A stretch of DNA of 61,301 bases, the filler included, from Dugesia japonica (Eukaryota), in the NCBI GenBank assembly GCA_001938525.1. It is 5 parts of 5 records of this genome, joined end to end, with 100 filler letters (N's around TTAATTAATTAA, not from the genome) between each part and the next. Parts side by side here need not be neighbours in the genome. Positions count along the whole stretch, not along the records: positions 40,492 to 50,463 come from MQRL01596069.1; 4 more parts are not named here. One strand, 5' to 3'. The first letter of the stretch is position 1. The number at the start of each line of letters is the position of its first letter. The notes beneath the pieces are model-generated. The model worked only from the letters and a program-made list of their open reading frames with translations. It made no database searches and was not told where the DNA came from. Positions 40,492 to 50,463 of this stretch are shown one piece after another. Position numbers and translations under genes: made by a program.

Positions 40492-40690
40492 ACATTTAAA
40501 TCCAAAATGTAAAATGTCACATTTAAATCCCAAAAAGGAAATATGCCAAAGGAAATATGCCAAAAAGGAAATATGCCAAAGGAAATATGCCAAAAAGGAA
40601 ATATCGTGAATGAAATCCAAATGAAATCCAAAATGAAATCCAAAATGTCAAATCCAAAATGTCAAATCCAAAATGTCAAATCCCCTACAT
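40492..40690. repeat. Short tandem repeats, probable subterminal region of the element
   Basis: CCAAA(AA)GGAAATATG x4-5 and AAATCCAAAATG(TC) x6-7 upstream of the first ORF. Confidence 0.75.
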
Positions 40691-40747
40691 TTTAAATTGT
40701 GGATCCAAATTTCACATTTTAATATTACTAAATTTTTCCTTTATAAA

Positions 40748-41365
40748 ATGACTACTGAGAAAAAAGAATTTAAACAAATAAGTTTATCAAGTGTTCACGA
40801 TTTATTATGTGATATTATTGATATAAAAGATACAAATATAGATGAAATAGTTGGATATACAAAATGTGAAGTCACAAAAGAAATTGCTGAAAATAATTTG
40901 GATTATCTTAATCAAATATATATTGAAATTAAAAATTTTAATATAATGGAACAACAAAAAAAAGATCTTTCTAAAATTATGACTATTTTTATGAGTATAT
41001 ATACAGGTGATCAATGTAAAGGTGCATTTATTCAAACAATGAATAATGAACTTGAACATTTAAAAAAAATCATTGAAGAATATAAACTACGGTATCAAGA
41101 AGAAAGAGATGAACATAATGCTGTTTTAAGTAAATATAAGGAACAATTAAAAACAAAACTTATTGAGAATATTGATATTAAATTTACACCTAGAAAAATA
41201 AATGGTAAATTTGTAAGTGTAAGTGCAGCCGATGTTCTTAATTTATATACAAATTTAAATAATAATCATAAACAACTTGATTCCCTTAAAACAAAAGATT
41301 ATACTCCTGTTTCAAAAAAGGGAAGTAAAACTATAGCCACTGCAAAAGCTATAATTAAATCTTAA
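40748..41365 (+). CDS. Maverick hypothetical coiled-coil protein (~205 aa)
   Basis: Open frame; likely start MTTEKKEF (TATAAAATG context); coupled to the next gene by TAAATAAAATG. Confidence 0.7.
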   Translation: MTTEKKEFKQISLSSVHDLLCDIIDIKDTNIDEIVGYTKCEVTKEIAENNLDYLNQIYIEIKNFNIMEQQKKDLSKIMTIFMSIYTGDQCKGAFIQTMNNELEHLKKIIEEYKLRYQEERDEHNAVLSKYKEQLKTKLIENIDIKFTPRKINGKFVSVSAADVLNLYTNLNNNHKQLDSLKTKDYTPVSKKGSKTIATAKAIIKS

Positions 41366-41370
41366 ATAAA

Positions 41371-41742
41371 ATGGATAAAACATCAGTTTTTTATAAAATG
41401 TTAAATGATTATAATTTTAAAGATAACTCAGTAAAAAACCTTTCAAAAATTAATAATGTTAGTGAAAAAACTGTAAAGAAATATTTAAAGAAATGGAATA
41501 TAGAACATAATACTTTAACATTTAACCCATCTAGAAATAATTATAGAGAACCAAATGGTAGATTTATTTCTTTAATAGAAAGATATGAAATAGAAAGATT
41601 TGCAAAAGAAAGATTTGCAAAAGAAAATAAAGTGGAAAATGAAATAAAATTTAGTAATATTTTTGAAGGTGTTAATAAAAAATCTGTTGGTAAAATTGAT
41701 TATGATGAACTTGGAAAAGAGATGAAAAAATACATGCGGTAA
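41371..41742 (+). CDS. Maverick small protein with helix-turn-helix-like motif
   Basis: SVKNLSKINNVSEKTVKKYLKKWNI fits an HTH pattern. Confidence 0.6.
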   Translation: MDKTSVFYKMLNDYNFKDNSVKNLSKINNVSEKTVKKYLKKWNIEHNTLTFNPSRNNYREPNGRFISLIERYEIERFAKERFAKENKVENEIKFSNIFEGVNKKSVGKIDYDELGKEMKKYMR

Positions 41743-41800
41743 CGTATGGTAACGTATGGTAATCGTATGGTAATCGTATGGTAATCGTATGGTAATCGCA
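41738..41800. repeat. 10-11-bp tandem repeat GGTAA(T)CGTAT upstream of the capsid gene
   Basis: Six consecutive units. Confidence 0.85.
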
Positions 41801-41841
41801 TACCCAAATAAAAAAAAACGGGTAAAATAATACTTTATAAA

Positions 41842-46779: not shown

Positions 46780-47441
46780 TCATGGAATTCCAAGTTTCAA
46801 ACGCATTTCAGAAATAACTTTACTTTGATTTTCAACTAATAACTTTAAATTATCATCTTTTTGTTTTTTATTTTCAGATATTAATTCATGGACATCAGAA
46901 ACCATTTTCTTTGAAATCTCTAATTCTTCATCTGTTAAAATTTCATCATGAACAGCTTTCTGTTGAAATAAGAATAATTTATTTTTAACACATTCTAGTT
47001 TTTTAATTAACTTTTCGTATCTTTCTTTTCGAGATTTAACAAATGAAGTGTTTAATGTCCCAATCACAGGTAAAACTGAAATAGCTCCAGTGATCACCGG
47101 TATAGTTATTCCTGAAATAACCAAACCAACTGGAGTTATTAAAACTATTCCTGTAACACCAATTCCTGCACTAATAAATATTTGTGTATATTTTATACTT
47201 GTATCAATTCTATTCCATCTTTTCTCTAATTTCTTATAATGTTTAATTTTATCTTTAATATAATANNNNNNNNNNNNNNNNNNNNNNNNNNNNNNNNNNN
47301 NNNNNNNNNNNNNNNATACAAATCATTTTCAAAATCTTTAATTCTAGATAAAGCAAGTTTATTTTTTAAATCTAGGATCGTATAATCATTATTATAATCA
47401 TTATGTAATCCGGGATAAATCTTATTTTCTTCAGATTCCAT
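46780..47441 (-). CDS. Maverick membrane protein (helical N-terminus, Gly-rich hydrophobic hairpin, coiled coil), ~200 aa
   Basis: Two ORF-track pieces joined across a 50-N placeholder; the homolog at 31259 shows the flanks are contiguous (DLY-YIKDK). Carries KAVHDEILTDEE. Confidence 0.8.
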
Positions 47442-49745
47442 TTTCTAAGTATAAAATTTTACATCTAAACATTTCAAAATATTTTTGTTGTTCTATTGGT
47501 GGAAAAACTATTTGAATTTGATTTATATTTTTTTCTTTGGTTTCTTGGTAAATTTTAATAGTATTATTTTTAGGTTTNAAATATTGATATGATATTGCAA
47601 TATGGTTAATTCTAATTGTATATGTAAATTTTTCAATTTCATGAAAATAACCATCTATATTTATACTAACTCTTTTATTAATTATTGTCTGTAAAAATAT
47701 TTCTTGTATAAATTTACCTTTTCTTCTAAAATCTATTTTATTAACATATTTATCTTCAACACTAAAATAAGGAAGATTATCTTTTTCATTAAAGGTAAGT
47801 GTAAATATTTCATTATTAGGTGTATTAACATAGGGTATGTAATTATCAAATATTTCTCTTATTTCTTTTAATGAATAAGTTTTAAATAAAACATTAATTC
47901 TATCAACATATATTTTGTGAAGTTTTGGTTTTATTGTTTCAAACTCTCTGCTTAGATCTTGATAAAATTTTAATCTATATGATTTAATGATTACATTATA
48001 TAAATAAATTTCTTTTGGTAAAATTATTTCAATGTAATTTATTTTTNNNNNNNNNNNNATTTGTGTGCTTTCTTTGTTAATTATTATTCTTTTACTGTCA
48101 GGTGTAATATATTCCATTACTAATGCAATATGATTAATTTTAATGATATAAGTAAATTTTTCCAATAGACAATAACCTTCTATAAATATAGATAGTTTTT
48201 CTTTAATATCTGTATGTAAAATAATAGATAAAGGTTCTTCAAGATAAAAAAAATAATGAATATATGATACAAGTTTCTTGTCACCTTTATATTTAAAATT
48301 AAAATTCTTTACTTGATCACTAATATGAAATTGTGGATGAATTTGATCTTTATAATAACAGATAATTGTTAATATTGTATTGTTATTTGGTAAAAAAACA
48401 TACTCTAAATAATTATCAAGTATTTCTCTTAAAGCTTTAAAATCAAAAGTTTTAGATAAAACATTTATCCTGTCAATATGTATCTTGTGAAATTTTTTCA
48501 TTGCATATTCTTTCTTTAATTTTTCAAATGTATATTGTTTATATAAATTGACACTTATTTCCTTTACACTAATATATGCAGGTAAAATTATTACAATATA
48601 ATTTATATTTATATCTTTATTAATTTCAGTACTTTCTCTGTAAATATTAATACTATTATTTTCAGGTTTCACATGTAAAAATGACACTGCAATTTTATTA
48701 ATTCTAATTACATAACTAAAATTTTTATTATATTCACCTGTAATATTTATACTAATCTTTTCATTTAGTTTTGTAAATAAATAAATTTCAAAAGGTGTTC
48801 CAATATAAAAATATCCTTCACCAATATAAACAGTTAAATTTACTTTTTTAAAACTAAAATCATTAACATATTTATCTATAATATTATAACCAACATATGG
48901 GTCTTTTTTATAATTANNNNNNNNNNNNNNNNNNNNNNNNNNNNNNNNNNNNNNNNNNNNNNNNNNACATAAGATAAATAATTATCAAGTAAACTTTTTA
49001 AATCTGAAAATGTTGAACCTGAAAGTGTTTCTTTATATTTTTTAAATAAATTATTAATTTTATTCTTATATATTATATGTTGTTTTGTATTTGCTTTTTC
49101 AATATCTTCTATGAATTTTAAAATCAATGGTTTATGTTTTTCTATATAGATTTTAAGATTATCAATGGAAATGATATAAGTATCAAATGTTTTCTTGTTT
49201 ATATCTTCATGTAAAATATTAATTCTTCTTTTTAATATCTCAATTTCTTTTTTAATTTTCGATGAATCAAGAGTAGCTAATTCTTTTAATTTAATTAATA
49301 AATCACTTCTTTTAAATGGAAATAGTTCTTGTTTTAATCTTTTAATGTCAGTGTTTATATTGTCAAATGATTCTTGTTTACAGTTCTTTGTTAATCCTTG
49401 AATTTTAAGATTAAAACTTGAAATATCTACATTCAAGGTTTTAAGTTCGTTGATTTTAGATTCTAAATATAATTTATTAACTGTAAAACTATCAACTTTT
49501 AATAATTTACTGAAAATTATTTCATGTTTCTGTAATTTATCTTCAAGAGACTTTATGTATTTTAAATTAACTGCATCTTGAAGATCTATAGGGTCATCTT
49601 TGATTTTTAGAGATGTGATTGTATCACCAGTTTCATTCACATATTTATTTTCATTTTGGGTATCTAAAATTTTAAGTTTAGCATCAACATTTTTTAATAT
49701 TAAACTTGAATTAACATTATTAGGAGTACCTGCAAATTTATTCAT
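47431..49745 (-). CDS. Putative fibre/receptor-binding protein (~770 aa) with three tandem C-terminal domains
   Basis: The frame of 47431-48687 is open back to the 50-N gap (48917-48966); repeats continue on both sides of it. N-terminal YVNETGD...P...DAVNLKYI motif and coiled coil. Confidence 0.65.
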
Positions 49746-49754
49746 TCTCTGACT

Positions 49755-50234
49755 TTATGTGGCTTCGCTTCTGTTGCTATTTTTTAATATTAATTTATAA
49801 AGTGATAACATTTCAGATATTATAAGATCAAACTCAACATATTGCAGCTTGTATAAAAAATAAATACATAAGATTCCACATATTTCAGTGTTAAAATGTT
49901 GCACTTGAATTTTATTATAAATCTTGGTATGTGGTTCTATTTCATCTAAAGGTTTTAAACCAAAAGAATCAAAGTAATAACCTCTAGAGTAAGCAACCCA
50001 ATGTGTTCCTTTTTGATTTGAGTTTTGATAATTAAATATAATATTTCCATTTAATTCTTTAGGTGTCTTTCCGTAGGTCAGCGTAGCGCATTCATTTTTC
50101 ATATAAATCTCAAGATTTAGATCTAAAAAGTTAGCAATTGAATATAAATCAAAATTTGTTGTTGTGTTGATTCCAAATGTTTTTAAAAAATCTAATAGCG
50201 AGTAATTCAATCTCTTTTCTAATAAACTGTACAT
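49755..50234 (-). CDS. Adenain-like (C5) cysteine maturation protease
   Basis: GTHWVAY (His), YYFDSFG (Asp), VQHFNTEICGILC (Gln, Cys). Confidence 0.93.
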   Translation of the reverse strand: MYSLLEKRLNYSLLDFLKTFGINTTTNFDLYSIANFLDLNLEIYMKNECATLTYGKTPKELNGNIIFNYQNSNQKGTHWVAYSRGYYFDSFGLKPLDEIEPHTKIYNKIQVQHFNTEICGILCIYFLYKLQYVEFDLIISEMLSLYKLILKNSNRSEAT

Positions 50235-50325
50235 TTTCGTCTTTTTTCGCGCTCTTTCTTATAATCGATATTTCTGCACTTCGTTTTATTTTCGTCTTTT
50301 CGGCTCTATGTTTTTTTATAGATCT

Positions 50326-50463
50326 TTATAATCGATACTTTCGTAGATGAACTAAAATTGTAATTGTTTCTTGGTTAAAATCTATTATATTAAAATTTTC
50401 ATCCATGATATTAATCTCAAAACCATCAATATAATCAGTGTTAATTTTAGAATAAATAACTGG
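50326..50463 (-). CDS. Minor capsid (penton) protein, C-terminal 45 aa (truncated by contig end)
   Basis: PVIYSKINTDYIDGFEINIMDENFNIIDFNQETITILVHLRKYRL matches the Polinton penton C-terminal pattern Y......I..I.I.I.D.....I.F......I.LHLR. Not in the ORF track. Confidence 0.82.
   Translation of the reverse strand, partial: PVIYSKINTDYIDGFEINIMDENFNIIDFNQETITILVHLRKYRL

Follow-up and report, generated by a model that had tools for sequence, protein, structure and literature searches.

The contig at positions 40492-50463 is likely to be a single, recently inserted chromosomal copy, at approximately single-locus depth, of a Polinton family whose diverged copies number in the hundreds to low thousands. 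Polintons are a well-known kind of virus-like transposon, and homology of the predicted proteins supports the assignment of the contig to endogenous Polinton/Maverick elements. The window, i.e. the whole 61,301-nucleotide stretch of Dugesia japonica DNA that was analysed, consists of five contigs joined via N44-TTAATTAATTAA-N44 spacers, and the Polinton module corresponds exactly to one of them. The sequence-only reading of this module, which had described it as apparently intact, was mostly confirmed, and the module is ordinary in kind; the label 'intact' was overstated.

Gene content and layout of the contig

Ten frames occupy ~92% of the contig (Table 1). Five frames on the plus strand are followed by five on the minus strand, with intergenic spacers of -21 to 317 nt. 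Recomputing frames, spacers and stops bore out the earlier description of tightly packed genes in two convergent blocks with a 21-nt end overlap (45350-45370), shared by the stop of the ATPase gene (TAG, ending at 45370) and that of the opposite ORF (TAA, from 45350). This overlap rests on the ATPase reading frame across 187 N, and the ATPase length matches that of its relatives. As also noted before, the contig carries no host flank; TIR, TSD and PolB are likewise absent from it, and its ends fall inside the element, Polintons being 15-20 kb long with a 6-bp TSD. The tandem repeats at the left end, possibly subterminal, have no partner arm within the contig, and no terminus is seen. The prediction that most of the penton lies beyond 50463 agrees with the contig having just the final 45 codons of a probable penton gene.

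Table 1. Features of the Polinton contig and of the second copy in the window
Feature	Position	Strand	Remarks
Tandem repeats with units of 14 and 30 nt, contig left end	40492..40683	.	TRF 40530-40604, 40613-40683
Accessory ORF1, 230 aa, no family	40673..41365	+	later ATG near 40748 possible start
Accessory ORF2, 123 aa, no family	41371..41742	+	
Major capsid protein (MCP), double jelly-roll, 431 aa, open	41842..43137	+	Pfam PF21738 E 7e-22
Zinc finger + parvovirus-type PLA2 + rve integrase, 466 aa, open	43147..44547	+	PF08398 E 2e-8, PF00665 E 2e-10
A32/FtsK-type packaging ATPase, 187 N inside	44621..45370	+	Pox_A32 E 2e-4 (under cut-off)
Accessory ORF, 370 aa, 15-nt internal repeats	45350..46462	-	46-aa match to L004 gene, pairwise E 1e-6
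Predicted membrane protein, across 50-N placeholder gap	46780..47441	-	long hydrophobic stretch (hydropathy)
Probable single orphan repeat gene, about 770 codons, two frames around 50-N gap	47431..49745	-	repeat spacing 570/569 nt across gap
Adenain-type cysteine maturation protease, 159 aa, open	49755..50234	-	tblastn from 5 relatives, E to 2e-25
Probable penton (minor capsid protein), last 45 codons	50326..50463	-	tblastn E 5e-4 from 1 relative
Diverged second copy fragment (repeat gene tail + membrane ORF)	31006..31543	+	76-82% nucleotide identity

The Pfam match of the MCP, its structure model (pLDDT 86.4) and the Foldseek matches of this model to viral capsids (PBCV-1, mavirus and iridovirus, with E near 1e-15), as well as to an adintovirus entry, all point to the double jelly-roll fold that characterizes Polintons/Mavericks. 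The best identity among 38 homologs is 56-57%; the nearest proteins (<=57%) are unnamed metagenome proteins, and the only named ones, with about 30% identity, come from Lottia gigantea. In a quick tree of 37 MCPs, where two Lottia proteins are the only named members of the group 1 and group 2 Maverick-Polintons, it occupies a long branch (0.85 vs 0.13-0.25 for the nearest rows), which may reflect relaxed constraint. The protease residues H78, D89, Q112 and C119, which we take to be catalytic by reference to the adenovirus protease, are invariant in all five aligned rows and, with the homology, identify the adenain-type protease of Polintons/Mavericks; the protein has no Pfam match. A PDB sequence search yielded no match for the protease or the MCP profile. 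The penton tail is 28-37% identical to the C-termini of four relatives, over 45 codons only, and adjoins the protease, as in the related metagenomic locus L019.

The integrase residues D234, D288 and E322 are kept in an alignment with 15 homologs (16 sequences) and form the DDE triad of a Polinton/Maverick rve integrase; one homolog is named, that of Oculina (39% identity). PLA2 and integrase domains occur together in 102 of 120 homologs among the matches listed, and by sequence comparison their fusion appears widespread in databases. It suggests that the integrase rides inside the particle. No account of it as a fusion emerged from the available text of the literature searched, and the accessible portions of PMC3671162, PMC4061559, PMC6431247, PMC9546926, PMC11161782 and 10.1101/2023.08.22.554363 make no mention of it. 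A phospholipase is said to be common among group 2 Maverick-Polintons in the available part of 10.64898/2026.06.19.733378.

The ATPase is 36-48% identical to those of relatives (E to 1e-32), and this homology identifies it as the A32/FtsK-type ATPase of Polintons/Mavericks. The 187 N mask about 62 of its codons, a quarter of the gene, directly past Walker B. In an alignment of five sequences Walker B is kept, and Walker A reads GSSGSGKN, its post-lysine residue being unlike that of all four relatives. The packaging ATPase of this copy may already be weakened, as far as its motifs indicate. Thus, the claim that four core frames lack stops and retain their catalytic residues holds for the MCP, integrase and protease but not for the ATPase, with its unread stretch and atypical Walker A. 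That nearly every other element of the window is decayed was verified: elsewhere the longest N-free open frame is 214 aa, and Gypsy, PolB and TBP-like remnants carry stops and frameshifts.

Among the accessory genes, the membrane ORF has a homolog in L019 (E 1e-9) and a second copy at 31254-31521, and a protein search returned no homolog at E 1e-3; a likeness to SLATT proteins (Atlas SLATT clusters, 0.88-0.89) is a lead only. Both frames of the orphan repeat gene probably form a single gene, in which repeat alignment delineated three repeats of about 190 aa. The model of the repeat unit (pLDDT 64.7) matches CBM32/DOC with Z 7.6, a value in the commonly seen range, and rmsd 3.0 over 100-105 aligned residues. 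The repeat is thus predicted to be a galactose-binding-like (lectin-like) beta-sandwich, and the gene is possibly a candidate attachment fibre. We found no true relative of it: a search of 1.84 billion proteins gave a single match, to an unrelated protein with tandem repeats, the Atlas values (0.76-0.82) are under significance, and the N-terminus resembles a small L019 gene weakly (13 residues alike, E 0.03). The pX-like and PZ-like genes of two relatives, L002 and L019, have no tblastn match on the contig at E 1e-3; 'PZ' is presumably the appropriate label for the relatives' gene. An Adeno_PX match was found on the L002 gene, and a pX gene may sit past the contig end. The ATAAAC box occurs in the window about as often as expected by chance (96 vs 93), with none preceding the MCP, ATPase or protease starts. 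A decayed PolB was also observed at 32774-34175, on another contig of the window.

Family size, depth and age of this copy

In DNA runs of one organism from three studies, 32,156, 32,608 and 32,236 contigs match the Polinton contig, mostly at 90-95% identity. In run X1, 2,976 of these are at 99% or more, 7,142 at 95-99%, 14,240 at 90-95% and 7,798 under 90%. Together with the second copy in the window, which lies at the end of another contig (contig 2) and resembles the repeat at the protein level (E 6e-9), these numbers strongly support the earlier suggestion of a multicopy element. Family copy number is roughly 170-3,400, a rough figure as summed depth does not equate to copy number. Summed depth is mostly 15,000-70,000 on core genes vs about 170-2,000 on the 370-aa ORF, which is more specific to this copy than any other part of the contig, and it is lower on ORF1 (2,100-6,200) than on core genes. 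The family looks modular, with core genes in very many copies and accessory genes in few.

This exact copy is present at low depth. Among the pieces listed, 14 of 24 show zero differences to the contig, and the stretches 45682-45966 and about 45993-46276 are each matched without a difference in X1, X3 and X4. The depth of zero-difference pieces is 14.5-20.5 (one 32) in X1, 6.5-7.6 (one 31) in X3 and 8.7-15.9 in X4, and that of long host pieces is 8-12.5, 4.4-9.2 and 5.7-20.7, respectively, which places this copy at 1-2x host single loci. Identical pieces from the MCP, integrase, ATPase and protease are missing among those listed; hence, the core is unphased. None of the pieces from the DNA runs matched to the contig spans it entirely.

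Stop-making single-base changes amount to 6.0% over 8,466 coding nt; the absence of stops from 8.5 kb of coding sequence therefore limits neutral divergence to about 0.6% (95%). The proposal of recent activity stands as a recent insertion, provided that the contig represents one locus, but not as episomal activity, in view of the depth. Twenty-five sites at which at least 90% of family depth is unlike the window, among 40 of 971 sites listed, are spread 9/7/9 over codon positions, which looks like drift; drift past the 0.6% bound would need selection against stops. In an oligo-dT run, of which ~25% was read, 306 reads matched the contig, all partially and two at 99% or more, a weak negative with no host-gene positive control. 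The runs listed with part of the contig include no RNA run, which says nothing either way about expression.

By analogy with known Polintons, the family would copy itself by a protein-primed PolB, not on this contig, and insert via the rve integrase, and the virion proteins (capsid, penton, ATPase and protease) would enable particle formation in some members. This copy is probably now passive.

Alternative explanations

The contig might be an assembly mosaic, i.e. a path through several close copies scaffolded over gaps, with no locus having all frames open. We regard this as unlikely, though with a real chance of being correct. It would account for the five internal N breaks (45105-45291, 47266-47315, 47578, 48047-48058 and 48917-48966), of which one placeholder is wrongly sized (56 nt between blocks only 3 nt apart in the paralog), and for the position of the core genes in a dense network of some 32,000 short contigs. 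Furthermore, the best run has just 0.49 of the sampled words from 40492-45100, and at 7 of the 38 listed coding sites the window letter occurs in no X1 contig; contig filtering or strain differences could explain such missing words and letters. However, the window has the minority letter at 25 of those 38 sites, which speaks against a collapsed consensus in its majority version, and identical low-depth pieces of 128-305 nt are found in ORF1, ORF2, the 370-aa ORF and the repeat gene. If free linear genomes were the source of the assembly, the contig would represent a currently replicating polintovirus that infects the host, episomal or carried in particles. This reading fits the open and tightly packed virion genes without host flank, the well-formed capsid model and the purifying selection seen between lineages of the family (9 synonymous vs 10 changed codons of 45, for 27 vs 108 sites). 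It is nevertheless very improbable: in three runs, each from a different study and together covering at least 2 years, contig-identical pieces lie at 1-2x the depth of a single host locus, which speaks against the suggestion of an episomal or amplified virus, and both the Walker A unlike those of relatives and the long MCP branch argue against it.

That the contig derives from a foreign organism or a viral contaminant is the reading to which we give least credence. The closest proteins are metagenomic, and CpG observed/expected is 0.45 vs 0.83-1.05 in the other four contigs. We rejected the idea that low CpG marks a foreign source: related loci are also low (0.16-0.89), and it accompanies a GC3 near 0.1. 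In contrast, 10 of the 11 runs with part of the contig are from one organism, the same runs contain a neighbouring host contig of the window at 0-2% difference, and host contig 2 contains a diverged copy. A further, improbable reading is that of a still-infectious animal polintovirus lineage with hundreds or thousands of proviruses in a much-sequenced host, whose integrase, bearing a membrane-breaking PLA2 domain, would be packaged for entry and integration and whose host-specific, three-headed lectin-like fibre would set tropism. If true, it would make this host a practical place to find Polinton particles, which have never been observed according to the available part of 10.64898/2026.06.19.733378.

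Relatives and comparison with known systems

Scans of viral_contigs with the MCP, the integrase and the integrase alignment revealed no relative. A metagenome scan yielded 34 loci with the alignment query and none with a single protein; all 34 were searched by tblastn, and the ORFs of three were examined. These three (L002, L004 and L019) share core genes with the contig, and L004 and L019 also have PolB, which makes the predicted location of PolB past 50463 plausible by analogy. L019 has the same order of penton, protease, small gene and membrane ORF as the contig. The supplement of PMC8502044 (4.0 million characters, seen in part) gave no match to either of two short motifs or to any of three genus names of planarians; an annotated relative may exist.

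Full-length MCPs were reported for 46 of 72 Polintons in the available text of PMC4028283. As Polintons with open capsid genes are common, one further copy changes little. A large family with young, nearly intact members and many public runs is, in turn, a place to seek natural particles or new insertions.

As far as the accessible parts of PMC4028283 and 10.64898/2026.06.19.733378 describe them, Polintons/Mavericks (Polintoviricetes) share with the contig the rve integrase, the double jelly-roll capsid protein, the A32-like ATPase and the adenain-type protease, next to a probable penton, in a compact two-block layout, and with its family the many copies per genome. The contig differs in that PolB, TIRs and TSD are not on it and that its MCP is at most 57% identical to any database protein. 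The module of Alpha (Mayetiola-class) adintoviruses also combines PLA2 with virion genes, an integrase, adenain and an FtsK-type ATPase (PMC8502044, available sections). However, their PLA2 belongs to a separate PLA2X gene with a C-terminal pX, whereas that of the contig forms the integrase N-terminus, and no separate PLA2X gene is present on the contig. In abundance, its family resembles the high-copy Polintons of corals and planarians, for which the available portions of PMC11131425, PMC8532177 and 10.64898/2025.12.11.693146 report a coral genome with up to about 2,800 MCP genes, and Maverick expansion with piRNA silencing in planarians.

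Virion genes of the Polinton contig

The Polinton contig (40492-50463, MQRL01596069.1) is the fourth of the five in the window, which are joined by fixed spacers. Ten frames cover 92% of it, five on the plus strand and the next five on the minus strand, and it terminates in the last 45 codons of a probable penton gene. Its 300 N lie in five breaks, the largest being 187 N within the ATPase gene; one 50-N gap is a placeholder. Elsewhere in the window, a near-exact 243-nt duplicate (17306-17548 and 17599-17841) flanks a 50-N gap. It is probably a scaffolding artefact, and it indicates that the assembly uses placeholder lengths for its gaps. 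The host DNA is AT-rich (GC about 25-28%), repeat-dense and eukaryotic; the host would be an invertebrate animal and, at a guess, a planarian.

Features of the Polinton contig and of other elements in the window
Feature	Position	Strand	Remarks
ORF1	40673-41365	+	
ORF2	41371-41742	+	
Major capsid protein (DJR)	41842-43137	+	431 aa; Pfam DJR-like match
Zinc finger, parvovirus-type PLA2 domain and rve integrase, fused	43147-44547	+	466 aa
370-aa ORF	45350-46462	-	accessory frame
Membrane ORF	46780-47441	-	homolog in L019; second copy in window (31254-31521)
Repeat gene	47431-49745	-	
TBP-like frames, decayed (two)	39959-40177; 26163-26399	- (both)	first: Pfam TBP, E 4.6e-7
Protein-primed PolB fragment, decayed	32774-34175	+	30% to PolBs of L019 and L004; stops, frameshifts
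Gypsy-type retrotransposon remnants	1006-3528 (-); also 54941-55436		zinc knuckle, protease, RT, RNase H; stops, frameshifts

The capsid protein has 38 homologs with identities of up to 57%, and its structure model (pLDDT 86.4) matches the major capsid proteins of iridovirus, mavirus and PBCV-1. In a quick tree of 37 rows the protein has a long terminal branch, for which AT drift or relaxed constraint may be responsible. PLA2 and integrase Pfam domains occur together in 102 of the 120 homologs listed for the fused protein (662 found; hand count). Relative to 15 homologs, the fused protein has small local deletions, and it lacks a tryptophan present in 14 of them. The sequence-only reading held that catalytic residues were intact. 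This stands for the integrase triad (D234/D288/E322) and the protease (H78/D89/Q112/C119), but not for the ATPase: although clearly homologous to those of relatives, it has a residue after the Walker A lysine unlike that of all four aligned relatives, and about 62 codons past Walker B are hidden by N. Three metagenome loci with homologous genes (L002, L004 and L019) share the core gene set, and two of them have PolB; their pX-like and PZ-like genes are absent from the contig.

Accessory genes and decayed neighbours

The region of the repeat gene is probably a single gene, in which a unit of about 190 aa occurs three times. The model of one repeat (pLDDT 64.7) is a beta-sandwich with helices that matches CBM32 and DOC domains with a middling score (Z 7.6, rmsd 3.0), and a search of 1.84 billion proteins gave no true relative. 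Its position among virion genes makes the product a candidate attachment fibre. For the membrane ORF, SLATT is a lead only. Its two copies, compared over 45 codons, have 9 silent and 10 residue-changing differences (27 synonymous and 108 non-synonymous sites), which indicates purifying selection between lineages.

As had been proposed, other elements in the window are decayed: Gypsy-type, PolB and TBP-like remnants have disrupted frames, and the longest N-free open frame outside the contig is 214 aa. The TBP-like regions match each other (E 6e-7) and may represent a second, larger family; summed depth at 26163-26399 reaches about 500,000, several times that of the Polinton core. Two minus-strand frames (235-510 and 24074-24349, the latter in a very high-depth repeat) have no Pfam match; a motif in them is reminiscent of the GIY-YIG endonuclease of Penelope-like elements. 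A diverged tandem duplication (26823-28199 and 29471-30363; about 64%, GC about 40%) carries similar unnamed minus-strand frames with no Pfam family. Three short consecutive tyrosine-rich frames (5985-6820, minus strand), also devoid of Pfam matches, may be the decayed remains of a further gene, viral or host.

Copy number and origin of the contig

Eleven runs from five studies contain part of 40492-45100 (best share 0.49), ten of them from organism A, the coded host. The analysis covered three DNA runs (X1, X3 and X4) and one RNA run of the 24 listed. About 32,000 contigs per DNA run match the element, most of them 90-95% alike. For core genes, summed depth falls mostly in the range 15,000-70,000; ORF1 and ORF2 as well as the repeat gene have 1,100-22,000, and the 370-aa ORF has 170-2,000. 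With contig overlap allowed for, this gives roughly 170-3,400 copies, an estimate rather than the true number, and bears out the suggestion of a multicopy family. The suggested episomal virus fared differently. Zero-difference pieces (14 of the 24 shown) have depths of mostly 14.5-20.5 in X1, 6.5-7.6 in X3 and 8.7-15.9 in X4 (two lie near 31), and long pieces of a host contig, differing by 0-2%, have 8-12.5, 4.4-9.2 and 5.7-20.7. Within that same organism, the contig haplotype thus reaches between one and two times the depth of a single locus, which is evidence against both an episome and a contaminant.

Across 8,466 coding nt, 6.0% of single-base changes would create a stop and none is present; the open frames are therefore not due to chance, and imply a young copy, selection on it, or a mosaic. 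The absence of stops caps neutral divergence at about 0.6%; if an indel rate is assumed as well, the limit falls to 0.3%. Differing sites number 971, of which 40 are shown and 38 lie inside scored frames. At 25 of these 38, 90% or more of family depth has a letter other than the window's, showing that the contig does not represent a majority consensus. The codon positions of the 25 sites (9/7/9; four of five integrase sites at third positions) hint at drift in a small, selected sample. A mosaic of close copies would fit the lack of any piece covering the whole contig, the lack of identical pieces within the four core genes among those shown, the placeholder gap, and seven sites at which no X1 contig has the window's letter; we nevertheless consider it unlikely.

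Comparison with known systems

In corals, capsid genes are reported in thousands per genome in the accessible part of one account (PMC11131425). That this lineage forms particles and packages the PLA2-integrase seems unlikely. The literature, as far as accessible, yielded no description of a PLA2-integrase fusion. In the available portion of the work on Alpha-class adintoviruses, PLA2 is a separate gene, PLA2X, whereas in the contig it is fused to the integrase (PMC8502044). Every testable hallmark gene of the contig fits Polinton/Maverick elements, as far as these are described in the available parts of the sources (PMC4028283; 10.64898/2026.06.19.733378).
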